NCBI RefSeq assembly: GCF_055900595.2
Contig: NZ_CM148325.1
DNA: 64,000 nt
Reading direction: 5' to 3' (one strand)
The stretch's first letter is position 1. Each line of letters opens with the position of its first letter. The notes under the pieces were generated by a model. It was given only the letters and a program-made list of their open reading frames with translations, was not told where the DNA came from and did not search any database. Of the stretch, positions 6,564 to 58,677 are shown one piece after another. The translations under genes were made by a program, and so were the position numbers.

Positions 6564-7194
6564 ATGAAGGGTCAACCAGAAGCCAGCTAAGGATCGTCTC
6601 TTTGATGACCTTACGCCTGGCTTCCAGTGCCTGCGGTGAAACCATACTGATGTGATAAACCAGGCCAAGCGTATGTTGGTTGATCAAATAATATCCTCCA
6701 AGAGCAGCAATATTAATATTCACCTGCAACGGGTCGATATCTGGCTTAAAAATATTGCGCCGTTTGCCTTCAGCTAATAATGACTCCATTAACTGTAAGT
6801 GTGCGTGGTTAATTTCTAAAAGGCGCTGTGATTTTGCATAATGCACCCCTTTACTCTGGTTTTCACTATGCACAATTTTTAAAAACCAGGGGTTAGCAAT
6901 GTAATAATCCCAGGTGAAATCGATAATTTTCTCAATGGCTTTTTGTGGCGGAAGACCTGAGAAATCAAGGGATTTTTCTTTTTGCCGAATATCATTCCAG
7001 GTATATTCCAGCACTTCGATAAATAAATTTTCTTTATTACCAAAGTGATGATAAACCGTCTGTTTACTGCACTCCGCGGCCTTGACGATATTATCGACTC
7101 TGGCCCCTTCGTAACCATATTCGGCAAATTCATTAACCGCACATAACAACAGCTTTTCCTTCAGGCTTTGTACGTTGCTGGTATCAAGATACAT
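6547..7194 (-). CDS. TetR/AcrR-family transcriptional regulator, divergent from the downstream operon (possibly the full-length counterpart of the K-12 ytfA fragment)
   Basis: N-terminal HTH region [48 protein letters not shown] typical of TetR family; start set at ATG 7192-7194 (215 aa); upstream in-frame start at 7254 possible; low GC. Confidence 0.8.
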
Positions 7195-7316
7195 TCCGCT
7201 TCCCCACGTCTTCTTCGTGATGACTATCTTAACCCGATTTGTTAGAAGCTCCACTAAAATGGCTAAAAACTCGCAATTTCATCGGGTTATCAAATGCTCT
7301 GTGATCATTATCGCAT

Positions 7317-7338
7317 ATCAACCAACTAGATGGTTGAT
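7317..7338. promoter_or_regulatory. Candidate TetR operator: perfect 8-6-8 palindrome ATCAACCA-actaga-TGGTTGAT between the divergent regulator and SDR genes
   Basis: Palindrome read directly from sequence, about 70 nt upstream of the SDR start codon and 120 nt upstream of the TetR gene start. Confidence 0.5.
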
Positions 7339-7405
7339 CTTTCTTGCCACACATTGCAAGCTAATCGTCACTTAAGGAAATAATATTCAAAAAGAGGGTT
7401 ATTGT

Positions 7406-8197
7406 ATGAAGTCAACACGTCCTGTTGCTGTCATCACTGGAGCCGCACGTGGTATTGGAAAGGGCTGTGCACTGGAACTTGCGCGTGGCGGATTTAATCT
7501 GCTGATTAATGATCGTCCGGATGCCGACAGCGTAGAAAAATTACATGCCACACAACAAGAATGTCTGGCGGAAGGCGTGGAAGTGATTTGCTTCCCTGCT
7601 GATGTTGGCGATCTCTCCCTTCATGAAGAGATGCTCGACGCGGCGCAAAACCAGTGGGGACGTCTGGACTGTCTACTCAACAACGCAGGCATTTCAGTGA
7701 AAAAACGCGGTGACCTCCTCGACCTCGAACCAGACAGCTTCGACCAAAACATTGCCATTAACACCCGTGCGCCGTTCTTCCTTGCTCAGGCATTCAGTAA
7801 GCGATTACTGGCACAGCCGAAACCGGAAGCAGAACTGCCGCACCGCTCGATTATTTTTGTCAGTTCCATAAACGCCATCATGCTGGCGATGAATCGCGGC
7901 GAATATACCATTGCCAAAACTGCCGTCTCCGCCGCAGCTCGCCTGTTTGCCGCTCGCCTTTGCAATGAACAAATTGGCGTTTATGAAGTGCGCCCTGGCC
8001 TAATCAAAACCGATATGACCATTCCGGCAACGGCTTATTACGACGAACTGATTGCTAAGGGGTTAGTGCCGTGGGGACGTTGGGGTTATCCGGCTGATAT
8101 TGCCTCAACGGTCCGCGCGATGGCGGAAGGCAAACTGATTTACACCTGTGGTCAGGCGGTCGCCATCGACGGCGGCTTAAGTATGCCGCGCTTCTGA
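7406..8197 (+). CDS. Short-chain dehydrogenase/reductase (SDR) family oxidoreductase
   Basis: 263 aa; TGAARGIG cofactor-binding motif, NNAG, and catalytic Ser...YxxxK (YTIAK); RBS GAGGG. Confidence 0.85.
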   Translation: MKSTRPVAVITGAARGIGKGCALELARGGFNLLINDRPDADSVEKLHATQQECLAEGVEVICFPADVGDLSLHEEMLDAAQNQWGRLDCLLNNAGISVKKRGDLLDLEPDSFDQNIAINTRAPFFLAQAFSKRLLAQPKPEAELPHRSIIFVSSINAIMLAMNRGEYTIAKTAVSAAARLFAARLCNEQIGVYEVRPGLIKTDMTIPATAYYDELIAKGLVPWGRWGYPADIASTVRAMAEGKLIYTCGQAVAIDGGLSMPRF

Positions 8198-8206
8198 GGC
8201 TGAATC

Positions 8207-9049
8207 ATGAGAGATCTGTTACAACGCCCGGATTTATTCAGTATCAATACTGCGACACTGGGCTATAAAACACCGCTACCTGCCATTATTGATGCCTGCG
8301 CCGCACGCGGTATTGGCGCGATTGCCCCCTGGCGCAGGGAGTTACAGGGTGAAGATCTCCAACAAATCGCCCGCCAGCTTGCTGCCAGTAACATGAGCGT
8401 TTCCGGTTTGTGCCGTAGCACCTATTACACCGCGCCGACGCTGACGGAACGCAAACTGGCGATTGATGATAACCGCCGGGCGCTGGACGACGCCGCTGTA
8501 CTAAACGCCGCCTGTTATATGCAGGTGGTTGGCGGTCTGCCAATGGGAACAAAAGATCTGTACGAAGCGCGGGAACAAGTGAAACAAGGGATTCGCCAGT
8601 TGCTGCCACATTCGAAAGATGTCGGCGTGCCAATTGCGCTGGAGCCGCTGCACCCGATGACAGCTGCCGATCGCTCTTGCCTGTGCACGTTACGTCAGGC
8701 GCTGGACTGGTGTGATGAACTCGATCCCGATGGGGAGTTTGGCCTCGGCGTGGCGGTAGATGTCTACCACGTTTGGTGGGATCCGGATCTCGCCAGTCAG
8801 ATCCTGCGTGCCGGAAAACGCATCCTCGCGTTTCATGTTTCCGACTGGCTGGTGCCAACCACCGATTTAGTCAATGACCGGGGAATGCCGGGAGATGGCG
8901 TAATCAATATTCCGTCTATTCGTCGCCAGGTAGAAAATGCCGGATTTAACGGTGCTGTGGAACTGGAAATTTTCTCACCGTACTGGTGGCAGCAAGATAT
9001 TAACAGCACGTTGGATATTAGCGTCGATCGCATCGCGCATTATTGCTAA
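8207..9049 (+). CDS. Sugar phosphate isomerase/epimerase-like (xylose isomerase-like TIM barrel) enzyme
   Basis: 280 aa; family assignment from overall sequence character (judged by eye, less certain than neighbours); 9-nt gap after the SDR gene. Confidence 0.6.
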   Translation: MRDLLQRPDLFSINTATLGYKTPLPAIIDACAARGIGAIAPWRRELQGEDLQQIARQLAASNMSVSGLCRSTYYTAPTLTERKLAIDDNRRALDDAAVLNAACYMQVVGGLPMGTKDLYEAREQVKQGIRQLLPHSKDVGVPIALEPLHPMTAADRSCLCTLRQALDWCDELDPDGEFGLGVAVDVYHVWWDPDLASQILRAGKRILAFHVSDWLVPTTDLVNDRGMPGDGVINIPSIRRQVENAGFNGAVELEIFSPYWWQQDINSTLDISVDRIAHYC

Positions 9050-9052
9050 GGA

Positions 9053-9835
9053 ATGATCATGAGTGACCAACCCGTTCTGTTCAGCAGAGCGGCGGCTTCC
9101 TGCCGCCTGACATTGAACCGTGAAGATAAATGTCATGCTATTAATGAAGAAATGATCGAATCTCTCGACCATTATTTAAATGAAATTGAAAACGACACCA
9201 CATTACGATTAGTCGAATTAACGGCAACCGGCGATAAATTCTTTTGTGCGGGCGGCGATATTAAATCGTGGTCGGCCTATTCGCCATTAGATATGGGCAG
9301 AAAATGGATTAAACGCGGCAATGACGTTTTTAATCGCCTGCGCAACTTACCCCAATTAACGGTTGCGAATCTCAACGGTCATACCATCGGCGGCGGTATT
9401 GAACTTGCCTTGTGCTGCGATATTCGTATTGCCCGCCCCAGTGCGAAATTCTCTAATCCGGAAGTAATGCTCGGCATGGTGCCTGGCTGGATGGGCATTG
9501 AACGCGTGCTTAATCAGGTCGGTCCGGTGGTCGGTCGCCAGATGCTGATGCTGGGTAAACGCCTGACGGCGCAGGAAGCTCAGGCGGCGAATTTAATTGA
9601 TGAAGTGGTAGAAAAAGAACAGGTGGAAAGCTGGATGGCGAATCAGTTAGCGCAGCTGGAAAAATGCGGTCCGGTGGCGCTCGCACATATCAAGCAACTG
9701 ATTCTGGCTCTAGAAAATAAACATGCTGATTACCCGCACCAGTTACTGGCTGGATTAATGTCCGCCACTCAGGATTGCCAGCAGGCGACGCGCGCATTTG
9801 CCGAAAAAAGTAGCGTGAGCTTCCAAAATCAATAA
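9053..9835 (+). CDS. Enoyl-CoA hydratase/isomerase (crotonase) family protein
   Basis: 260 aa; FCAGGDIKSW and GHTIGGGIELALCCDIRIA crotonase signature segments; 3-nt gap after the upstream gene. Confidence 0.85.
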   Translation: MIMSDQPVLFSRAAASCRLTLNREDKCHAINEEMIESLDHYLNEIENDTTLRLVELTATGDKFFCAGGDIKSWSAYSPLDMGRKWIKRGNDVFNRLRNLPQLTVANLNGHTIGGGIELALCCDIRIARPSAKFSNPEVMLGMVPGWMGIERVLNQVGPVVGRQMLMLGKRLTAQEAQAANLIDEVVEKEQVESWMANQLAQLEKCGPVALAHIKQLILALENKHADYPHQLLAGLMSATQDCQQATRAFAEKSSVSFQNQ

Positions 9836-9844
9836 GGAAATTGT

Positions 9845-11386
9845 ATGCGTAAGATAACAACCGCCGAGACACTGGCGGCGCAAATTCAGGACGGCGCAAC
9901 CATTGCCATTAGCGGTAATGGCGGCGGCATGGTGGAAGCGGACCATATTCTGGCTGCTATTGAAGCGCGTTTCCTGCAAACCGGACACCCGCGCGATCTG
10001 ACATTAATCCACTCACTGGGCATTGGCGATCGCGACTGCAAAGGCACTAACCGCTTCGCTCATGCAGAGATGCTCAAACGCATCATTGCCGGACATTTTA
10101 CCTGGTCGCCCAAGATGCAGGATCTGGTGAAAAACAATGCTATTGAAGCCTACTGCTTCCCTGGTGGCGTAATTCAGGCACTGCTGCGGGAGATCGGTGC
10201 CGGACGTCCAGGGCTTTTTACCCACGTTGGGCTGGGATCGTTTGTTGATCCGCGCAACGGCGGCGGTAAGTCGAACGCTAGCAGCACTGAGGATCTGGTA
10301 GAACTGATTGAAATCGACGGTGAAACCAAACTTCGTTATCGCCCCTTCAAAGTGGACTACGCGATTTTGCGTGGCACTTATGCCGATCCGCGTGGCAACG
10401 TCAGCCTCGAAGAAGAGGCGATTGATATGGATAGCTATTCCATGGCGCTGGCAGCACACAACAGCGGCGGCAAAGTGTTCGTACAGGTGCGCGATGTGCT
10501 GGAAGCTGGTGCCATTGAACCACGCCGGGTCAAATTACCGGGCATTCTGGTTGATGGCATCGTTGAACACCGCGAACAACCGCAAACCTATCTTGGCGGT
10601 TACGACCTGACCATCAGCGGTCAGCATCGCCGTCTAAGTTCTAACGACGCAATTGAACTGGTTAGTCATCCGGTGCGCCGCCTGATTGCCCGTCGGGCAG
10701 CACGCGAACTGGTGGCTGGCGCTTCAACCAACTTTGGCTTTGGCATTCCCGGCGGCATTCCTGGGGTTGCACTGCGCGAAGGCGTGCCTTATCAAAGTTT
10801 ATGGCTGAGCGTAGAACAGGGTGTACATAACGGCATGATGCTGGATGATGCTCTGTTCGGCTGCGCCCGCAACGCCGATGCCATTATTCCATCACTCGAT
10901 CAATTCGAATTCTACAGTGGCGGAGGGATCGATATCACCTTCCTCGGCATGGGAGAGATGGATCAGTACGGTAACGTCAACGTCTCCCATCTCAATGGCA
11001 ATCTCATTGGCCCCGGCGGATTTCTCGAAATTGCGCAAAACGCCCGTAAAGTGGTGTTCTGCGGCACGTTCGACGCCAAAGGTAGCACGATTGATGTAAC
11101 ACCAGATGGCTTGCATATCGCCCAGTCAGGTCAAATCCCTAAACTGGTTACCCAGGTGGAAAAAATCACTTTTAGCGCCGCCTACGCACAGCAAAGCGGT
11201 CAGGAAGTGTTGTATATCACTGAACGTGCAGTATTCCAGTTAACAGCAGAAGGCGTTGAATTAATTGAAATCGCACCAGGTGTGGAGATTGAGCGCGACA
11301 TTCTGCCGCATATGGCCTTCCGTCCAATTATCAATCAGCCACGCCTGATGGAAAGTAGCCTGTTTACGCCGATGGAGGATGCATGA
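9845..11386 (+). CDS. Family-I CoA-transferase (fused alpha/beta, YdiF / propionate-CoA-transferase-like)
   Basis: 513 aa; N-terminus TAETLAAQIQDGATIAISGNGGGM and size match acyl-CoA:acetate/3-ketoacid CoA-transferases; RBS AAGGA. Confidence 0.75.
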   Translation: MRKITTAETLAAQIQDGATIAISGNGGGMVEADHILAAIEARFLQTGHPRDLTLIHSLGIGDRDCKGTNRFAHAEMLKRIIAGHFTWSPKMQDLVKNNAIEAYCFPGGVIQALLREIGAGRPGLFTHVGLGSFVDPRNGGGKSNASSTEDLVELIEIDGETKLRYRPFKVDYAILRGTYADPRGNVSLEEEAIDMDSYSMALAAHNSGGKVFVQVRDVLEAGAIEPRRVKLPGILVDGIVEHREQPQTYLGGYDLTISGQHRRLSSNDAIELVSHPVRRLIARRAARELVAGASTNFGFGIPGGIPGVALREGVPYQSLWLSVEQGVHNGMMLDDALFGCARNADAIIPSLDQFEFYSGGGIDITFLGMGEMDQYGNVNVSHLNGNLIGPGGFLEIAQNARKVVFCGTFDAKGSTIDVTPDGLHIAQSGQIPKLVTQVEKITFSAAYAQQSGQEVLYITERAVFQLTAEGVELIEIAPGVEIERDILPHMAFRPIINQPRLMESSLFTPMEDA

Positions 11387-13455
11387 GTCAGCTTGATGAC
11401 ACCCTCCTTGATGCGCTGACGCACGTCACTTTCCCGAAGGGTTTTGCACAGGCAGAACCCGCATGGGTTGTCACGGTAGACGGTGTTGATTACCCACTCT
11501 GGCAAACAGATGCCCTGGTAGTCGGCAGTGGTGCAGCCGGGCTGCGTGCAGCTGTGGAACTTAAGCGCCGCCAGCAAAATGTGCTGATCGCCACCGCCGG
11601 GTTATATATGGGGACATCGGCATGTTCTGGTTCCGATAAACAGACGCTGTTTACCGCCGCTACCGCGGGCAACGGCGATAACTTCGCCAAACTGGCAGAG
11701 GCACTGGCGAGCGGCGGCGCAATGGATCACGATACCGCTTATGTTGAAGCGGTTGGTTCCCTGCACACTCTTGGCGGGTTGCAATATCTTGGTCTGGAAT
11801 TACCGGAAGATCGCTATGGCGCAATTCTTCGTTATCAAACCGACCATGACGAAGCCGGGCGAGCAACCTCGTGTGGGCCGCGGACCTCAAGGTTAATGGT
11901 GAAAGTACTGCTGGAAGAAGTACAGCGTCTCGCCATTCCAGTGTTGACCAGTGCAACAGTAATTAAACTGCTGCATCAGCGTGACGAAAACGGTGAAGAC
12001 CGCGTGGCGGGGGCAATCCTCGCGACCGGTCATCGTGCCCATAACCCATGGGGGCTGGCAATTGTGACTGCGCCCAATGTGGTACTGGCAACAGGAGGGC
12101 CTGGCGAGCTTTATCGTGACAGTGTGTACCCACACAAATGTTTCGGCTCGCTGGGGCTGGCGCTGGAAGAAGGTCTGACGTTAACGAATCTGACCGAAAG
12201 CCAGTTTGGTATAGGCACGCCGCGCAGCACCTTTCCGTGGAATTTATCCGGGACTTATGTACAGGTGATCCCATACATCTATTCGGTGGATGCCGGGGGC
12301 AACGAGTATAACTTCCTCGCAGATTACTATCGCACCACCCAGGAGCTGGCTTCAAACATCTTCCGTAAAGGCTATCAGTGGCCGTTTCACGCCACACGAG
12401 TGATGGATTTTGGCTCCAGCTTGTTAGATATGGCAGTAGCGCAAGAGCAGCAATCAGGACGTCAGGTATTTATGGATTTCAATCGCAATCCTGAACCTGT
12501 GCCGGGTGACCTGCCGTTCTCATTAGATCGACTGGACGACGACGTTCGCGCGTATCTGGAAAATAACGACGCTCTGGCACCATCGCCCATCGAACGACTG
12601 CAACGAATGAATCCGCTGTCTATCTCGCTGTATAAGATGCACGGTTACGATCTCACCACGCAGCCATTGCAGTTTGCCATGAATAATCAGCATATGAATG
12701 GCGGCATTGAAGTGGATATCTGGGGGCAAACCTCCCTGTCCGGCTGTTTCGCCGTGGGGGAAGTTGCTGGCACACACGGCGTCACTCGCCCTGGTGGTGC
12801 GGCATTGAATGCCGGGCAGGTTTTTGCTGTTCGTCTGGCACGTTTTATTGGTTGCACGCAAAAACGTAATATTGATGGAGATATAGCACAGCTGGTAGCT
12901 CCGGCACTGGCTTCTATAAGAGAGATCATTACTCAGGCGCACGATAACGGGACCGGGATGCCGTTGTCGGTTGTGAGGGAAAAAATTCAGGCACGAATGT
13001 CTGACCATGCGGGATTTATTTGTCATGCCGATAAAGTCCGACGCGCCACTCGTGATGCCCTGCTATTGAACGAATTTGTGCAACGGCATGGATTGGCAAT
13101 CAAACATGTGGGTGAAGTTGCCGAGCTGTTTATGTGGCGGCATATGGCGCTGACTTCTGCCGCGGTATTAACACAATTAACGCATTATATTGATGCTGGT
13201 GGTGGTAGCCGTGGGGCGCGTATGGTTATTGATCCACAAGGCAAATGCCTACCACAAACTCGTCGCGGCGCAAAAGAAGAATGGCGTTTTCGCTCTGAAC
13301 TCGCTGAAGACAAAAATCACAAATTAACAATTCAATATTCGCAAGGTTCTTTTATTACCGAAGTAAAGTCTTTACGTATGCAACCGTGTATTAACGGTAT
13401 TTACTTTGAAAAAAACTGGCCAGACTTTTTAAAGGGAGACATTTACACACAGTAA
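11383..13455 (+). CDS. FAD-dependent oxidoreductase of the fumarate reductase/succinate dehydrogenase flavoprotein superfamily (soluble, stand-alone)
   Basis: 690 aa; ALVVGSGAAGLRAAVEL dinucleotide-binding motif after a ~45-aa N-terminal extension; C-terminal GEVAGTHGVTRPGGAALNAGQVFA resembles the FrdA/SdhA HGANRLGxNSL segment; start overlaps the CoA-transferase stop (ATGA). Confidence 0.8.
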   Translation: MSQLDDTLLDALTHVTFPKGFAQAEPAWVVTVDGVDYPLWQTDALVVGSGAAGLRAAVELKRRQQNVLIATAGLYMGTSACSGSDKQTLFTAATAGNGDNFAKLAEALASGGAMDHDTAYVEAVGSLHTLGGLQYLGLELPEDRYGAILRYQTDHDEAGRATSCGPRTSRLMVKVLLEEVQRLAIPVLTSATVIKLLHQRDENGEDRVAGAILATGHRAHNPWGLAIVTAPNVVLATGGPGELYRDSVYPHKCFGSLGLALEEGLTLTNLTESQFGIGTPRSTFPWNLSGTYVQVIPYIYSVDAGGNEYNFLADYYRTTQELASNIFRKGYQWPFHATRVMDFGSSLLDMAVAQEQQSGRQVFMDFNRNPEPVPGDLPFSLDRLDDDVRAYLENNDALAPSPIERLQRMNPLSISLYKMHGYDLTTQPLQFAMNNQHMNGGIEVDIWGQTSLSGCFAVGEVAGTHGVTRPGGAALNAGQVFAVRLARFIGCTQKRNIDGDIAQLVAPALASIREIITQAHDNGTGMPLSVVREKIQARMSDHAGFICHADKVRRATRDALLLNEFVQRHGLAIKHVGEVAELFMWRHMALTSAAVLTQLTHYIDAGGGSRGARMVIDPQGKCLPQTRRGAKEEWRFRSELAEDKNHKLTIQYSQGSFITEVKSLRMQPCINGIYFEKNWPDFLKGDIYTQ

Positions 13456-13547
13456 TTTTCAATATTTACTCTGTACCTGATTTTTATTGCCTATTACATG
13501 GAAATACCAACAACCAGGGTTTATTAATATAATTAAAAGGTTTAAAA

Positions 13548-14825
13548 ATGAATAAAATAAAGAATTATCGATGGCATATGATTGCCCTCGTATGCTTTAT
13601 CACTGTAATCAATTATCTGGACAGAACGGCGTTAGGTATTGCGGCTCCAACGATTATGGAGACAACCGGAATAACCAAAGAACAATATTCATGGATTGTC
13701 AGTGCATTCCAGTTGGCCTATACATTGGGGCAACCGGTAATGGGCTTCTTTATTGATACCGTGGGTCTGAAGTTAAGTTTTGCGATATGTGCCGCAATCT
13801 GGGGCCTGGCGACAATGGGGCATGCCTTGACAGGAACATGGTCAGGTCTGGCATTTATGCGCGCCCTGATGGGTTTCAGCGAAGCATCGGCAATTCCTGC
13901 GGGTGTAAAAACCGCATCAACATGGTTCCCGGCAAAAGAGCGTGGCGTGGCGACAGGTGTTTTCAATATGGGCACCTCACTCGGCGCGATGCTTGCTCCA
14001 CCGTTGATTGCCTGGTGCATTATGTTTCATAGCTGGCAATTTGCGTTTATTGTCTCAGGTAGCCTTGCTTTACTCGCGGCTTTATTTTGGTTCTTTTGTT
14101 ATAAAGATCCAAAAGATGCTAAACGCCTTTCTGATGAAGAGCGCCACTATATTGAGTCTGGGCAAGAACAGCATCTTAAAACAGATAAGAAAGAAAAAAC
14201 GTCAATCAAGCATATCCTCAGCCAACGTAATTTCTGGGGGATTGGCATCGCGCGTTTTCTCGCTGACCCGGCATGGGGAACCATTAACTTCTGGGTACCG
14301 ATTTTCTTCGTCGAAACGCTGCATTTTAGCCTGAAAGAAATTGCCATGTTCGTCTGGCTGCCTTTCCTGCTGGGCGATCTCGGCTGTTTAGCCAGTGGTT
14401 TTGTCGCGAAGTTCTTCCACGATCGCGGCGTGAGTTTAATTAACTCACGAAGAATTACCTTCACTATTGCAGCCGTCATTATGATGACGATTGGTCTGGT
14501 GAGTATTGTCGAAAATCCCTACATCGCCGTATTACTGATTAGCATTGGCGCATTCTCGCATCAATGTCTTTCTACTGTTGCAGCAACTCTGGGCGGTGAC
14601 CTATTCAAAAAAGACGAAGTAGCTACCGCTGTGGGTATGGCAGGAGCCTGTGCATGGAGCGGTCAGTTGATTTTCAACCTGTTTATCGGGGCATTCGTTC
14701 ACATTATTGGCTTCGCGCCGTTCTTTATTGCCCTGGCTTTCTTTGACATTATTGGTGCTATTGCGTTGTGGACGCTTATCAAAGTTAAAGATGAAGAACC
14801 ACAAGTACAGTTAGCTACCCACTAA
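13548..14825 (+). CDS. MFS transporter, anion:cation symporter (ACS) subfamily-like (ExuT/DgoT/GudP-type)
   Basis: 425 aa, about 12 TM segments; N-terminal RWHMIALVCFITVINYLDRTALGIAAP is characteristic of ACS-family organic-anion permeases. Confidence 0.8.
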   Translation: MNKIKNYRWHMIALVCFITVINYLDRTALGIAAPTIMETTGITKEQYSWIVSAFQLAYTLGQPVMGFFIDTVGLKLSFAICAAIWGLATMGHALTGTWSGLAFMRALMGFSEASAIPAGVKTASTWFPAKERGVATGVFNMGTSLGAMLAPPLIAWCIMFHSWQFAFIVSGSLALLAALFWFFCYKDPKDAKRLSDEERHYIESGQEQHLKTDKKEKTSIKHILSQRNFWGIGIARFLADPAWGTINFWVPIFFVETLHFSLKEIAMFVWLPFLLGDLGCLASGFVAKFFHDRGVSLINSRRITFTIAAVIMMTIGLVSIVENPYIAVLLISIGAFSHQCLSTVAATLGGDLFKKDEVATAVGMAGACAWSGQLIFNLFIGAFVHIIGFAPFFIALAFFDIIGAIALWTLIKVKDEEPQVQLATH

Positions 14826-14836
14826 TTATTTTAAAT

Positions 14837-14868
14837 AAAAACGCTATAATTGAGGTTATGGCGTTTTT
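14837..14868 (+). terminator. Intrinsic terminator after the MFS transporter gene
   Basis: Hairpin aaaacgctataa/ttatggcgtttt (one mismatch) with short loop, followed by a T-run, 12 nt past the stop codon. Confidence 0.55.
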
Positions 14869-15094
14869 AAAGAAGCTTGAGTTATCGAACCTAGCTTACC
14901 AACGCGTTGTCAGTCATCTCCCCCCTCCCTGGTGCATCGTTATATCCGTGATGAGCGATTTTTGATATTAATATCTTTCACCATCCGCTATTTTCACCAC
15001 TTCAGAAAACAAACTTATTTTTATTAATATCAATTCTTTTTCTTTGAACATTCAACTGCGATATTTGTAAAAATATTAAACAGGCAACAATAAA

Positions 15095-28951: not shown

Positions 28952-30115
28952 TTAGCCAGCAATATAATGCGGAACGAAACGTGAGGTGTCTTTGGTGATC
29001 AGCGTGTTATCTTCACGGATCCCCATTCCGCACGCTTCATCATCAACAATCCAGCTACCAATGAGTGTGTAGCTATCGCCAAATCGTGGCAGAGGTTGAA
29101 ATGCCTGGTAGATCATCGGTTCATCGGCATAATCACCCTCAGCGTGGTCAACGACGTTATTCTGACCATCGAAAATGGTGACGTTACCGCCCTCGCGTGA
29201 GTAGATCGGTTTACGCACATAGCTTTCGCCAGCGGCAATCTGCGGTTTTTCGCCATCAAACCAGGATGCAAGTAGGTTAGGATGACCAGGAAAGAAGCGC
29301 CAAAGCAGCGGCATTAACCCTTTGTTGCTCAAGATACTTTTCCATAACGGCTCCACCCATTGCTCGCGGCGCTTGCGCAGCAGCGGACCGTTATCGTCAC
29401 GCATCATCCATTCCAGCGGATACAGCTTAAATGCACGCTGGATGACATTATCATCAAGATCGGTCAGTACACCGCCGACGCCTAAACCGAGATCTTCAAT
29501 GTAGATAAACCGTGACTCCTGCCCAGCCTGCTGAGCGCAGTCCTGCAAGTACAGCACAGTACTCCTGTCTTCGTCGGTATCCTGACAACAGCAGAAATAA
29601 AACGGTTCCCGACTGTAAAGCTCGCTAAAACGCGAAATCAGGCGTTCCTGAATGGCATTGTACTGATCGGCATCACGCGGAATACTGCCGCTACGCCGCG
29701 CATCTTCCAGCCACAGCCACTGGAAATAAGCCGACTCATACAATGAGGTCGGCGTATCGGCGTTGTACTCCAGCAGCTTCACCGGCGCATTACCACACCA
29801 GGCAAAATCCATCCGACCATACAGCGAAGGATCGCGTGCGCGCCAGCTTTCAGCGATCACATCCCAGTACAGCGGGGGGATCGCCAGTTGCGTCAGGATC
29901 TCTTCGTCTTGAACCGCACGATCCACCACCTCAAGGCACATCTGATGCAGTTCCGCAGTTGGTTTTTCGATCTGCTCTTCTATCTGCCGCAGAGTAAAGC
30001 GGTAAGCCAGACTCTCATCCCAATAAATTTCATTATCGATGATATGAAAGTCGAAACCGTTGTCGGCGGCGATCTGGTCCAGATCCCGTCGTACAGGAAC
30101 GTTGTGTCTCAGCAT
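28952..30115 (-). CDS. yjfC: Glutathionylspermidine-synthase-like ATP-grasp protein YjfC
   Basis: 387-aa ORF, last gene of the yjfKLMC unit. Confidence 0.88.
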   Translation of the reverse strand: MLRHNVPVRRDLDQIAADNGFDFHIIDNEIYWDESLAYRFTLRQIEEQIEKPTAELHQMCLEVVDRAVQDEEILTQLAIPPLYWDVIAESWRARDPSLYGRMDFAWCGNAPVKLLEYNADTPTSLYESAYFQWLWLEDARRSGSIPRDADQYNAIQERLISRFSELYSREPFYFCCCQDTDEDRSTVLYLQDCAQQAGQESRFIYIEDLGLGVGGVLTDLDDNVIQRAFKLYPLEWMMRDDNGPLLRKRREQWVEPLWKSILSNKGLMPLLWRFFPGHPNLLASWFDGEKPQIAAGESYVRKPIYSREGGNVTIFDGQNNVVDHAEGDYADEPMIYQAFQPLPRFGDSYTLIGSWIVDDEACGMGIREDNTLITKDTSRFVPHYIAG

Positions 30116-30117
30116 GA

Positions 30118-30756
30118 TTAGCCTCCCCAGTGCCCACGGGCGCTGGAAGAACGACCATAGCCGCCGCGAGAAACAGTTGACGCTTTTCTGGTGGTAAAGC
30201 CGCCCGAGGAGTAAGACTCTTTTTTGCCAGAACCGGAGCGCCAGGAGTAATCACCGGAAGTATTGCGCCAGACGGGGCGGGAAGCAAATGAGGATCCACC
30301 GCTGTTATAAACGAACGGCTCATCGCGATCTTTACGAATAACCCGGCTTAATAAAAATCCAGAAATGACCGGGATCCAACTCTGTTCAACATTGTCGTAG
30401 TAGCAATTTTCGTACTTAGACTGACAATTCTGCTGAGTCATATTCTTCGGAACATCGGCATAAAATGCCGCTTTGGCATTGTTCCAGCCATGAGCACAGA
30501 TATCTGAATTATTACCGTCATCAATACAATCCTGCACTGTCGAGTAAAACGTTCCGTCACCGTCGTTATCGACATCACCACTATCGCCACAACCTTTCAA
30601 TACAAAAAAAGCTGCACCGCCCATTAGCGCCAACGTTAAGTATTTTTGTGCGTAGCGATTGCGTCGCGGCTCAAAAGGATTATTAGGTCTTCCAATGCGA
30701 CTGATCGCTCCGTGACCAATTTTACTGTTATTTCTTGATTTGCGTTTTCTGGCCAT
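30118..30756 (-). CDS. yjfM: DUF1190 protein YjfM
   Basis: 212-aa ORF with N-terminal basic segment and Gly/Ser-rich C-terminus. Confidence 0.85.
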   Translation of the reverse strand: MARKRKSRNNSKIGHGAISRIGRPNNPFEPRRNRYAQKYLTLALMGGAAFFVLKGCGDSGDVDNDGDGTFYSTVQDCIDDGNNSDICAHGWNNAKAAFYADVPKNMTQQNCQSKYENCYYDNVEQSWIPVISGFLLSRVIRKDRDEPFVYNSGGSSFASRPVWRNTSGDYSWRSGSGKKESYSSGGFTTRKASTVSRGGYGRSSSARGHWGG

Positions 30757-30765
30757 GATCGTCCA

Positions 30766-31164
30766 TTACCATGTCATACAAGCTGCGTTAAAAATACCGC
30801 CAGCCAGCGCGGCGGTTCCCATAAACATTCCTGCTGCGGTATTGTGATTAATAATTTTTTCGCTTAATGCTGGCATATAAAGTCTGACGCCAGCAAAAAC
30901 GAGTAACTGAATCACCAGTGCGATCCCGCCCCAGGCAAAATAATCCGGAATACTCACCGCATTGATTGCCGCACTAGATAATGGGATCACGTAACCCAAC
31001 AATGTACCACTGAACGCCAGTGCCGCCGCGGTATTATTGTTTTTAATTAACTGCCATTCGTTGTGCGGTGTAATTTTGGAGTAGATAAACAGAAAAATAA
31101 TCACCATAGCCACGCCAATAAAAAAATAGGCGCTAAAGGCAAGAAGTGAATCCAGTATATGCAT
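30766..31164 (-). CDS. yjfL: DUF350 inner membrane protein YjfL
   Basis: 132-aa hydrophobic ORF. Confidence 0.85.
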   Translation of the reverse strand: MHILDSLLAFSAYFFIGVAMVIIFLFIYSKITPHNEWQLIKNNNTAAALAFSGTLLGYVIPLSSAAINAVSIPDYFAWGGIALVIQLLVFAGVRLYMPALSEKIINHNTAAGMFMGTAALAGGIFNAACMTW

Positions 31165-31181: not shown

Positions 31182-31841
31182 TTAACCAATAATATGAAGT
31201 GATGTCAGTGGGATATCAACACCCAGTGCGCGCGAAAATAACCACTCCGGCTCGCCGAGATCGTTAAAAGATTCCTCACCATTTAACAGCAAATATTCAC
31301 AGGTATCTTCGGTCACCTGCCGTTCATAGCCCATGGTAAAATTATGCACTTCCCATTTGGCGTGGTTTTGATTTTCAACTTTTTCCAGCATATAGACGGG
31401 TTCGATATTCCCCGGTTCTTCGCTGTTAAAAAATCGCTGCCAGCGTTTTTCCTGCCAGTTTAAAGTCATTGCCCCCATCGCTTTGGCATTGATCGCCTCG
31501 CGCCAGTGGCTCTCTTTACTGATACCGTAGCTCTCTTCATAGACAAAGAGCTTGATATCATCAATGTCATCAATATCTTCGCCGCCGGTGGTATTGATTT
31601 GCAGAAATTCATCGCCCGAAGTGTAGTAGCGGAAAATCTGACTACCGCCGCCCAGATCGATGTGGCTGACAGCGGCTACCGTAAATTCTTCACCCGGCAG
31701 CGCAATCAGCAATTCATCTTCCAGCAAACGAAACGCTAACGTGTCGAGCGTAAAGCCGCTATTGAGATGAAGTCCCAGTGGGCCACGTGCGATTGCAGGT
31801 TTATCATCCTTACCAAACAGACGCTTGAAAAAACTTGTCAT
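31182..31841 (-). CDS. yjfK: DUF2491 protein YjfK
   Basis: 219-aa ORF; start codon overlaps the stop of the upstream channel-like gene (ATGA). Confidence 0.85.
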   Translation of the reverse strand: MTSFFKRLFGKDDKPAIARGPLGLHLNSGFTLDTLAFRLLEDELLIALPGEEFTVAAVSHIDLGGGSQIFRYYTSGDEFLQINTTGGEDIDDIDDIKLFVYEESYGISKESHWREAINAKAMGAMTLNWQEKRWQRFFNSEEPGNIEPVYMLEKVENQNHAKWEVHNFTMGYERQVTEDTCEYLLLNGEESFNDLGEPEWLFSRALGVDIPLTSLHIIG

Positions 31842-32908
31842 ATGCTTCCCTCAATGTCCTGCCATGCCACTTCTTCAGCCAAAATACGGTTATTGCCAAT
31901 AAGATGCAGCCACATACCGCCTTTAACTTCCGTTGCAATGACTGGATTCAGTTCCATTCCCCTACCATTTTTACAACTGCTTATTCCCAGGACGGTGGCA
32001 TCATGATGAAGTTTCATATAATGCATCAATGCGCCATAACGCATTGAGGTAACCCGTTCAGGAATCGGTAAAACAAACCCCGTATCCCCCAGCATTGGAT
32101 TCATAATCGATGCCACTGATTGAGATGAACCGGGATCTTGTATTGAACGGGAAAGTTGTTCTGCTGAAATATTTCGCACTATTTCAATACGTTGACAATG
32201 AACCTCTAATAAACGAGCGTAGCGTTCATCTTCCAGATAAGCGACGATATGGCATCTTTCAGGAATAAAATCCGCCAGGGATAGTGCGGTCGTGAACGTC
32301 TGCTCATCAGTTTGCGAAAAGATGATGACACTTTGGCAATTTGCCAGTCCCATGCGGGTATGTTCATGCGGATCATTAAAATTACTAATACGAATGAAAT
32401 CGACCCAATTATTTCCAGGCATCGGATGTTGAATATCATCCCGCTCACACAAAAGTACCCGGCCAAATGCTCTTCGGGAATCAAACAACAATAATGAAAT
32501 CATCTTTTCAGTCTGATGCCCGCGCCATCCAATGACCAGCATATGGTTGCGCAAATTGCTGTAGTCGCCCATTCCCGTCATTCCTTTCGCCAATATGTCT
32601 TGCACTAATGCAATGACTTTTCCCATTAAAGCGCCAAATAAACCAACACTCACAGGAATCTGCCAGAGCGCTGTGAACAGACGTCCCCCCACCGTTTGGG
32701 GTGTGATATCACCAAACCCCAGCGTTGATCCCACAACCGAGCAGTAATAAATAAAATTACTCAGTTGACCTACCAACGCCTCTTCATGCAACGCAGTTAA
32801 CACCAGATAACAAAACAGATACTGTCCTGTAAATAATCCAGTCAATGCCGGCCAGGTAAGCCTGGAAAGGTGACGTCGGCAGGTTTTAATGATCCATGAG
32901 AAGAACAT
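31838..32908 (-). CDS. Two-TM K+-channel-like membrane protein with a C-terminal cytoplasmic domain (possibly RCK/TrkA-like), inserted between yjfJ and yjfK
   Basis: 356-aa ORF; hydrophobic helix - pore-loop TLGFGDITP - hydrophobic helix; C-terminal soluble domain with VIGWRG segment; about 43% GC in sampled stretches and rare codons CGA/AGA/AGG/GGA/TTA seen; coupled by TAATG to yjfJ and ATGA to yjfK. Confidence 0.8.
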   Translation of the reverse strand: MFFSWIIKTCRRHLSRLTWPALTGLFTGQYLFCYLVLTALHEEALVGQLSNFIYYCSVVGSTLGFGDITPQTVGGRLFTALWQIPVSVGLFGALMGKVIALVQDILAKGMTGMGDYSNLRNHMLVIGWRGHQTEKMISLLLFDSRRAFGRVLLCERDDIQHPMPGNNWVDFIRISNFNDPHEHTRMGLANCQSVIIFSQTDEQTFTTALSLADFIPERCHIVAYLEDERYARLLEVHCQRIEIVRNISAEQLSRSIQDPGSSQSVASIMNPMLGDTGFVLPIPERVTSMRYGALMHYMKLHHDATVLGISSCKNGRGMELNPVIATEVKGGMWLHLIGNNRILAEEVAWQDIEGSI

Positions 32909-33606
32909 TACTCGCCCTGTTGGCGTTGCAGTCTTGCTAATACATCCTGGGCGCTACTTTTGTTGCTACCGCCAATTCCGGCTTCCGCCAGTTTTTCATC
33001 AAGATCGCGACCATCTGCCACTTTTTCCAGCTGTGCGGCAGCATCCAGGCGAGCTTGACGTTCGGCCTGACGCGTTTGCAGACGCTTTAAGGATTCTGCC
33101 GCTGTCGAAACGCTGGAAGATGCGCCAACAGTAGAGGTCGTTACGGCCTGTTGTGCACGCTGCATGGCTTCAGTAGCTTTAACGACTTCCATTTGTTGCT
33201 CAAATTGAGCGATACGCTGTGCTGTCGCTGTAACCGCTTTTTCCACACCATCGCGAGAGACTTCCAGATTCGACAACACTTGCTCTTCAGCGGTAATGAC
33301 ATTCTCAAGACGGGCGATTTCTTCAGCAACTTCGTTAATCAACGACGGATTAACATTCTTGCTTAACGCTTCCAGCGCGCGAGCTTCCAGACTGGCTTTA
33401 CGCTCACGCAAATCTTTCAGTTTATCGTTGCTCAATTTCACTCTTGCCAGTAGATCGACACGTGATTTACCGGCCTTATCCAGTTCTGCTTTGGCATCGC
33501 GTATATGCTGTTCAAGCATTCTAACGCCCTGTGCTTCTTCAATGGATTCTTCCGCTTGCGAGATCACCGATTTACCCAGCGTAAATAAAGTTTTTAAAAT
33601 TCCCAT
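32908..33606 (-). CDS. yjfJ: PspA/IM30-family protein YjfJ
   Basis: 232-aa coiled-coil-rich ORF. Confidence 0.9.
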   Translation of the reverse strand: MGILKTLFTLGKSVISQAEESIEEAQGVRMLEQHIRDAKAELDKAGKSRVDLLARVKLSNDKLKDLRERKASLEARALEALSKNVNPSLINEVAEEIARLENVITAEEQVLSNLEVSRDGVEKAVTATAQRIAQFEQQMEVVKATEAMQRAQQAVTTSTVGASSSVSTAAESLKRLQTRQAERQARLDAAAQLEKVADGRDLDEKLAEAGIGGSNKSSAQDVLARLQRQQGE

Positions 33607-33624: not shown

Positions 33625-34026
33625 TTAATGTGAATATTCTTCTGTAATTTCAGCAAGATCCAAAGCGTTATCTACCAGCGTGGTTATTTCCAGCAGGATA
33701 TCTTCAAGAGAAGATTTAAGCGATAACGCCCCGAAAACAATGTAATACTCTTCCTGTTGCACGCTGGAGATCCCTACCGATGACAACGGCATCATCTTCT
33801 GATTTCTTAATAAGAAGGTATGAAATTCATCTGGATTGCTGATACTACTTACCGGGCAAATAAAGGTTTCGATGATCATTTGGCGGGAAGTAAAAAGAAT
33901 ATTGATTTGCAAATCGCCATAATCATTCATTTTAATAATTAATGCGTTTTCATTATTTGTTACATCAATATTTTGTTCAGGTACAGTTTGCAGCGCCGTC
34001 GCCAGCGCCAACGGATTCCATGTCAT
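33625..34026 (-). CDS. yjfI: DUF2170 protein YjfI
   Basis: 133-aa ORF, first gene of the yjfIJ unit. Confidence 0.85.
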   Translation of the reverse strand: MTWNPLALATALQTVPEQNIDVTNNENALIIKMNDYGDLQINILFTSRQMIIETFICPVSSISNPDEFHTFLLRNQKMMPLSSVGISSVQQEEYYIVFGALSLKSSLEDILLEITTLVDNALDLAEITEEYSH

Positions 34027-34105: not shown

Positions 34106-34132
34106 AAAAAAAAACCATCCAAATCTGGATGG
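34106..34132 (-). terminator. Intrinsic terminator after rlmB (ccatcc-agattt-ggatgg followed by a U-run on the minus-strand transcript)
   Basis: 6-bp stem with the + strand A9 run giving T9 downstream on the minus strand. Confidence 0.6.
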
Positions 34133-34152
34133 CTTTTCATAATTCCGAGAAA

Positions 34153-34908: not shown

Positions 34909-35007
34909 GCCTGATGCGCTACGCTTATCAGGCCTACATGATCCCTGCAATGTATTGAATTTGCCTGATTATGTAGGCCGGATAAGGCGTTCACGCCGCA
35001 TCCGGCA
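34909..35007. repeat. BIME-type repeat: two REP units flanking an AT-rich spacer (gcctgatgcgctacgcttatcaggcctac ... gtaggccggataaggcgttcacgccgcatccggca)
   Basis: Classic REP consensus palindromes read directly, between rnr and rlmB. Confidence 0.8.
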
Positions 35008-35064
35008 TGAACAAAGCGCATTTTGTCAGCAATCTGCCCCTCTTCTGTTTGAAGAGGGTAATGA

Positions 35065-51233: not shown

Positions 51234-51502
51234 TTCATCCACAGCTTGTGAATAAAAATAAAAACGCATTGCAATTCAAGGCGAATAAAATCGTCAAGTG
51301 ATCGACTCGACAAAACGAGATCTTAATTTTCAACCTATATATCAATAAGTTAAAAAAATACTATTCACCGTGCGAAGTTTCTTTGAAATTAAGATTACGA
51401 CATGAGGCTGTGGATAACTCTGTTTACAAGAGTTTGTCAGAGACAACAAAAACCAGCAATAACGCATCGCGTCGCTGTGGATATTTTATTGAGAGAAGAA
51501 TT

Positions 51503-51578
<76 letters not shown>

Positions 51579-51613
51579 TTGGGTGGTCTGTGCTTTGCAG
51601 CACTTTCAAATTT

Positions 51614-51689
<76 letters not shown>

Positions 51690-51846
51690 TTAATCTTCGT
51701 CTTTCGAACCGCTACTGCCTTGGCTGCCTTCACTCACCTTAGTCACTTACTTTTGTAAGCTCCCAAGGATTCGTTCAGTTGCCGCCTTGTCACAATTCGA
51801 AATACTGCGATTGGGTGGTCTGTGCTTTGCAGCACTTTTCAAATTT

Positions 51847-51922
<76 letters not shown>

Positions 51923-58580: not shown

Positions 58581-58677
58581 GAGATAATCGGTCGCTTAAT
58601 TTCGCTATAGCGCATACGAAATCCCGCTAATTCCCTGTCATTGCGCCCTATCGTCAGGCAGACGATAGGGCATCGGG

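Follow-up and report, generated by a model that had tools for sequence, protein, structure and literature searches.

Bacterial operons built around a dyad of a CesT/Tir-like chaperone and a PspA-family protein have been described, and in the third group of these CesT/Tir-PspA operons the dyad is accompanied by an ATP-grasp ligase related to glutathionylspermidine synthetase (PMC11237479, mSystems 2024). The same operon type includes a ligand-sensing potassium channel (PMC11237479). The bac cluster of Pseudomonas aeruginosa (PA3732-PA3729; PMC10948618) also has a dyad of a YjfI-like protein (BacA) and a PspA-like protein, but it is a band-7/flotillin variant with neither a potassium channel nor an ATP-grasp gene (PMC11237479). 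In Escherichia coli K-12, yjfIJKL is one co-regulated unit, which is upregulated in thermally evolved strains (PMC12492005). Here, we analysed a stretch of 64,000 nucleotides from contig NZ_CM148325.1 (RefSeq assembly GCF_055900595.2), hereafter the window, in which a gene for a 356-amino-acid protein lies between yjfJ and yjfK (31838..32908, minus strand). We compared this protein with the described potassium channels, above all with MthK, the Ca2+-gated K+ channel of Methanothermobacter (PDB 1LNQ, 3RBZ, 6U68), and its locus with the described operons.

The gene very probably encodes an MthK-type K+ channel and occupies the third position in a seven-gene operon of ancient, vertical descent, from which it was lost in E. 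coli sensu stricto and in the common configuration of Salmonella enterica. The locus combines a DUF2170-PspA dyad, a glutathionylspermidine-synthase-like ATP-grasp gene, the channel, DUF350, DUF1190 and DUF2491 in one cluster; it shows no essential difference from the third-group operon and is an instance of it. A preliminary description of this DNA had taken such a channel module to be undescribed for this locus, which does not hold, since RefSeq annotates the product as a potassium channel family protein (WP_000466338.1) and the operon type is covered in PMC11237479. Both the channel and its operon link to PspA/YjfJ are thus already annotated and published. What is added here is modest: the pattern of presence in Escherichia cryptic clade I versus E. 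coli sensu stricto, an independent deletion scar in Salmonella, and the non-conservation of the MthK Ca2+ site. Our literature search brought up no experiments on this channel.

Architecture of the channel protein

The channel protein consists of a minimal potassium-channel pore with two transmembrane helices (2-TM) and one C-terminal RCK domain, an arrangement like that of MthK. The pore module (residues ~19-105; 32594..32854, minus strand) comprises TM1, a pore helix, the selectivity filter and TM2, as delimited by AlphaFold helices, hydropathy and alignment with the MthK pore. The preliminary description had read a 2-TM pore with a K+-filter-type motif and a C-terminal RCK/TrkA-like gating domain from the letters alone, and both halves of that reading are borne out. 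The motifs that it quoted are present, with SNFIYYCSVVGSTLGFGDITPQT at residues 50-72, TLGFGD at residues 62-67 and VIGWRG at residues 125-130. Pfam Ion_trans_2 matches once only, at residues 42-103 (E = 1.7e-10), and Kyte-Doolittle hydropathy has two peaks, centred at ~30-40 and 85-100, one on each side of the filter. The AlphaFold monomer, with a predicted local distance difference test (pLDDT) score of 94.8 and a predicted template modelling (pTM) score of 0.83, places an N-terminal helix before TM1 (19-39), the pore helix (49-61) and a long TM2-linker helix (73-111), so that helices flank the filter in the model as well. The C-terminal part of the model is an RCK-like alternation of strands and helices. 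An older database name, two-pore-domain (K2P) channel, is ruled out by the single Ion_trans_2 match and the single filter motif.

Relatives were searched among 1.84 billion representative proteins; 1,154 passed E <= 1e-3, and 108 of these also passed E <= 1e-30. Among the best 150 of the 1,154, the majority are ~350 amino acids long and aligned over their full length. The family alignment, which also served as the profile, holds 51 sequences. In the selectivity filter T62-L-G-F-G-D67 (32708..32725, minus strand), G64, G66 and D67 are invariant across this alignment and T62 is kept in 49 of the 51 sequences, the family consensus being TVGYGD. The cytoplasmic RCK domain (residues ~120-345; 31874..32551, minus strand) was delimited by alignment with the MthK RCK profile and by AlphaFold, and comprises a Rossmann-like N-lobe that starts at VIGWRG, the QDPGSS motif and a TrkA_C-like C-lobe. 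Its family-conserved residues are H122, P162, D201, E242, D258, G260, T276, N321 and R341, and the signature of the family includes D258-P-G260-S-S (QDPGSS), N321-P and R341.

The RCK assignment comes from the full-length profile match to MthK, from AlphaFold and from Foldseek, the Pfam TrkA_N match being weak (E = 0.039). The 51-sequence profile matched MthK with E = 7.7e-38 over positions 3-333 of 352, and MthK was aligned through residue 320 of 336. The RCK-only chain of MthK, 2ogu, was matched with E = 8e-14. After MthK, the profile matched GsuK, Slo1/BK and then pore-only channels. Foldseek against the PDB gave MthK chains at the top, with template modelling scores of 0.69/0.76 to 6u68_A. 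The two proteins are alike in length and architecture: each has an N-terminal helix, a 2-TM pore, a TxGxGD filter, a linker and one two-lobed RCK domain. The beta-1 motif of the RCK domain, VIGW, corresponds to ICGW in MthK, and both proteins are without GxGxxG. This dinucleotide-binding motif, the mark of NAD(H)-binding domains of the KTN/TrkA type, was not found at beta1-alphaA of the channel, where the sequence is V-I-G-W-R-G-H-Q-T and the family conserves no residues but G127 and T133. However, the channel shares only ~16-19% sequence identity with MthK and, unlike MthK, it is bacterial, embedded in an operon and equipped with its own conserved RCK signature.

E. coli has a potassium channel of its own, Kch (NCBIfam PRK10537 / NF007828), whose pore and RCK parts align with residues 45-256 of the channel protein (E = 1.2e-8). 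We rejected orthology with Kch, because the score of 34.4 bits is far below the equivalog cut-off of 425 and the match covers only model positions 175-378, the N-terminal part of the model being missing from the channel protein. This part of Kch consists of extra transmembrane helices.

A seven-gene operon with conserved overlaps

The channel gene is the third of seven genes in the operon and is probably translationally coupled to yjfJ and yjfK. It starts with ATG and, as had been noted from the open reading frame list, it fits exactly between its two neighbours, which the coordinates and the overlaps confirm. The stop codon of yjfJ and the channel start have one base in common (TAATG), and the channel stop and the start of yjfK have four (ATGA). 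Both overlaps are kept in Escherichia, Salmonella, Citrobacter, Atlantibacter and Buttiauxella.

All seven genes are on the minus strand. The first, yjfI (33625..34026), encodes a DUF2170 protein related to BacA (NCBIfam BacA, E = 6.6e-26; PF09938 in the Salmonella orthologue), and its assignment as a CesT/Tir-like chaperone is taken from PMC11237479. It is followed by yjfJ (32908..33606), a member of the PspA/IM30 family whose orthologue has PF04012, and by the channel gene. Downstream of the channel are yjfK (31182..31841; DUF2491), yjfL (30766..31164; a DUF350 membrane protein) and yjfM (30118..30756; a DUF1190 lipoprotein), which were identified from the open reading frame list, RefSeq annotation and the Pfam domains of their orthologues, with NCBIfam in addition for yjfM. 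The last gene, yjfC (28952..30115), encodes a glutathionylspermidine-synthase-like ATP-grasp ligase (NCBIfam Gsp synthase C-terminal part, E = 1.2e-47). From yjfI through yjfJ, the channel gene, yjfK, yjfL and yjfM to yjfC, the intergenic gaps are 18, -1, -4, 17, 9 and 2 nt.

The upstream limit of the operon is a terminator-like hairpin 3' of rlmB (34109..34138, minus strand; terminator scan and sequence), after which comes an AT-rich leader of ~80 bp. A terminator scan of the operon gave no internal terminator of note, and a promoter scan found 8 candidates against 9.6 expected from shuffles, that is, no excess. The Rfam scan returned sub-threshold matches only, which resemble repetitive extragenic palindromic (REP) elements and lie between rlmB and rnr. 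These matches, to naRNA4 and ES036, two REP-derived small RNA families, are at 34930-35012 of the window and probably mark a REP element.

Vertical inheritance in Enterobacteriaceae

The seven-gene order was found at the same chromosomal locus, rnr-rlmB...aidB, in Salmonella, Citrobacter sp. On2M, C. youngae, C. sedlakii, Atlantibacter and Buttiauxella, as well as in a second Escherichia lineage (a separate species in GTDB) and in two further enterics. The order is also present in Serratia microhaemolytica, where no flanking rlmB or aidB was recovered. A related-locus search with a narrower alignment, whose peptide patterns were narrow, returned 7 loci. In every genus compared with the window, the identity of the channel falls between that of YjfK and that of YjfJ; in Salmonella, for example, YjfK is 79%, the channel 83% and YjfJ 88% identical. 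The ratio of non-synonymous to synonymous substitution (dN/dS) of the channel gene against the second Escherichia lineage is 0.075, at a dS of 0.146. The shared locus, the identities that track those of the neighbours, the kept overlaps and the low dN/dS together point to vertical inheritance under purifying selection. The channel gene is thus an ancestral, vertically inherited member of the operon in Enterobacteriaceae.

Presence in cryptic clade I and loss in E. coli sensu stricto

The gene was searched with BLAST against 5,426 complete E. coli genomes and was found in 18 of them, always between yjfJ and yjfK and with at least 99.5% identity. The flanks of these 18 carriers are 97.7-100% identical to the window, and the next best genomes reach at most 94.9%. 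PMC10100065 places two of the carriers with complete genomes, EC42405 and 2013C-4282, in Escherichia cryptic clade I, and members of the channel cluster bear EsCd1 locus tags from the same study. The divergence is not confined to the gene: outside highly conserved genes, the whole window is ~93-96% identical to K-12. Since the divergence runs through the window and two of the carriers belong to clade I, we assign the window to Escherichia cryptic clade I; it is not an island in an ordinary E. coli. Clade I is the lineage that retained the channel gene.

K-12 was expected to have no gene at this position, and the BLAST comparison agrees: in a K-12 derivative, yjfJ and yjfK are 50 bp apart with no open reading frame between them. 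This 50-nt spacer (L001 8843-8892), which replaces 31842-32907 of the window, forms a stable hairpin of 10 bp (-18.5 kcal/mol, z = -3.85), and no channel remnant was seen in it by eye. E. coli sensu stricto deleted the channel gene cleanly, leaving the hairpin spacer. The preliminary description had called the gene a strain-variable insert; its variable presence stands (18 of 5,426 genomes), while the insert does not, the gene being an ancestral one that was deleted in E. coli sensu stricto. As a separate observation, IS1 is inserted exactly in the yjfJ-yjfK spacer in several E. coli sensu stricto genomes (H23, H67, H68, H95 and H99).

An independent loss in Salmonella enterica

In the common configuration of S. 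enterica, the channel gene is absent and a scar lies between yjfJ and yjfK (L024 4700-4946). Of the gene, the first 34 codons and the last 17 codons remain, the former without a mismatch to the intact allele of Salmonella (100% identity). Between them lie ~95 unrelated nt that include a strong GGTAGCGCG/CGCGCTACC hairpin; Rfam gave no match here. The scar marks a deletion and not an insertion, and this loss is independent of the one in E. coli sensu stricto. Both losses left short fillers with unusually stable hairpins.

Some database entries, P0033 and P0080 among them, seem to be products of gene calls in which the remnant of the channel is continued into DUF2491. The 90%-identity cluster of the Salmonella channel (P0004) also contains many PspA/IM30 proteins of 232 amino acids, presumably a clustering artefact of fused gene calls across the TAATG overlap. 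Because PspA and channel proteins are mixed in it, the 1,960-member count of this cluster was rejected as a measure of prevalence.

Proposed function and alternative explanations

If the channel assembles like MthK, its pore would be built from four subunits, whose RCK domains would make up a ligand-sensing gating ring. The channel would conduct K+, and its gating would depend on a cytoplasmic ligand that is not Ca2+ at the main site of MthK. The shared bases of start and stop codons would tie synthesis of the channel to that of YjfJ and YjfK, and the channel may adjust K+ flux or membrane potential within a PspA-like membrane-stress, polyamine-linked module. The proposal in the preliminary description, that a membrane-stress system is here linked to a module for regulated ion flux, is a reasonable one, and the idea is not new. 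K+ pores are classically blocked from the cytoplasmic side by polyamines, as established for the eukaryotic Kir channels. This makes a link to the YjfC ligase plausible but speculative, and one guess is that a polyamine-related metabolite may act as ligand or as pore blocker.

We also considered a more specific form of this proposal, in which the RCK subfamily senses a ligand unlike those of the characterised RCK domains, for example a polyamine or a conjugate made or consumed by YjfC. The channel would then partner YjfJ physically or functionally and set K+ flux and membrane potential anew when the envelope is stressed or the cell is heated, and its repeated deletion would reflect a fitness cost in a gut-pathogen lifestyle. 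Taken as a whole, this chain of suppositions is tentative and on balance unlikely.

Both main model enterics are natural nulls for the channel gene, E. coli K-12 on the one side and mainstream S. enterica on the other, which explains why the gene is not known to have been studied. The intact seven-gene operon is at hand in cryptic clade I E. coli, Citrobacter and some Salmonella serovars. Natural nulls and carriers together offer a clean add-back/knock-out contrast for the part that a ligand-gated K+ channel plays in a PspA-type membrane-stress module, and the same contrast is a route to the RCK ligand of this channel family.

Several observations weigh against an MthK-type K+ channel that belongs to the operon by function. 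The filter has L63 and F65 at the positions that hold V and Y in the family consensus, and K+ selectivity is therefore no more than likely. The operon has been retained without the channel in two successful lineages, that is, the loss was repeated. Members of the wider family are in part unlinked to the operon or stand alone on plasmids, so that membership of the family does not require the operon link. In addition, the internal start that gives MthK a soluble RCK product is not conserved across the channel family. The candidate for it in our protein, M113, has AAGGA 9 nt upstream, bases that are also constrained by the invariant K108-G109 codons; it is kept in most enterics and absent in Atlantibacter and the greater part of the wider family. 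In principle, M113 could give rise to soluble RCK subunits such as those that complete the octameric gating ring in MthK.

Some of these points would equally suit an independent housekeeping channel for K+ or other cations, maybe weakly selective, whose place in the operon is incidental and which is not coupled to PspA/YjfJ or to the polyamine-type genes. The persistence of the operon without it in E. coli sensu stricto and common Salmonella, the standalone homologues and the off-consensus filter are all in keeping with this explanation. Standalone homologues with 39-40% identity are carried by ~300-kb Vibrio plasmids, pVb1182-tet (L027 5968-7023) and pIFL1_1 (L028 5971-7035), further homologues are on 51 Rhizobium plasmids, and neither P0034 (36% identity) nor P0123 (25% identity) shows operon linkage. 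The linkage to DUF2170, PspA, DUF2491, DUF350, DUF1190 and GSP_synth nevertheless reaches down to ~30% identity. P0069 (29-30% identity) lies in a colinear DUF2170-PspA-channel-DUF2491-DUF350-DUF1190-GSP_synth operon, and P0045 (32% identity) has the same genes in a rearranged layout, with the DUF2170-PspA dyad transcribed divergently. DUF2170 adjoins P0049 (about 30% identity), and DUF1190 follows P0100 (26% identity). With the conserved overlaps of start and stop codons counted as well, an incidental position is decidedly unlikely. In the Vibrio plasmids, the homologues adjoin lepB, and genes with BRCT and NYN domains are nearby.

A plain MthK orthologue, gated by Ca2+ and working exactly like MthK, would account for the full-length profile and fold matches. 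The main Ca2+ site of MthK, which we take to be D184, E210 and E212, allows a direct comparison. In the alignment of MthK with the family, the equivalents of these residues are F197, Y224 and E226, and the column of E210 holds Y, H or F across the family, never E. The retention of E212 as E226 and of D245 as D258 speaks for such an orthologue, but two of the three acidic main-site ligands are not conserved in the channel, and by its aligned residues the channel does not qualify as a functional MthK equivalent at the Ca2+ site. The low identity to MthK and the family-specific signature of QDPGSS, N321-P and R341 point the same way, and we consider Ca2+ gating of the MthK kind very unlikely.

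The preliminary description had also suggested an effector of abortive-infection type. The PADLOC-DB defence models gave no match for six of the seven operon proteins and, for YjfJ, nothing beyond weak matches to coiled coils (E about 1e-3), and our plasmid and phage searches did not find the channel gene on an enterobacterial plasmid or a true phage. A recent, lineage-specific horizontal insertion of an accessory or abortive-infection effector, one that would depolarise cells attacked by phage, is largely refuted and, in our view, barely credible: the small number of E. coli carriers, a dip in guanine plus cytosine content to 0.42-0.44 over part of the gene and the related channels on large Vibrio and Rhizobium plasmids might favour it, but the gene occupies the same operon slot at the same core-chromosome locus across enterobacterial genera with identities that track those of its neighbours, its overlaps with yjfJ and yjfK are conserved, the low guanine plus cytosine content is common to the neighbouring yjf genes, the operon proteins have no meaningful PADLOC match, enterobacterial plasmid or phage copies were not found, and the Salmonella scar is a deletion. 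The preferred explanation remains an MthK-type channel that was inherited with its operon.

Other differences between the window and K-12

Outside the yjf operon, some further differences between the window and K-12 were noticed. A block of ~8 kb between ytfB and rplI (~6950-14926) is absent from K-12, where only a TetR pseudogene fragment and yjfZ are found. In the window, the block comprises genes for an intact TetR/AcrR regulator, a 3-ketoacyl-ACP reductase, a sugar-phosphate isomerase, an enoyl-CoA hydratase, a CoA transferase, an FAD oxidoreductase and a three-gene TRAP transporter. At ~58621-58630, ~270 bp of K-12 are missing from the window. A tandem tRNA-Gly region at ~51500-51920 shows copy shifts in the K-12 alignment.

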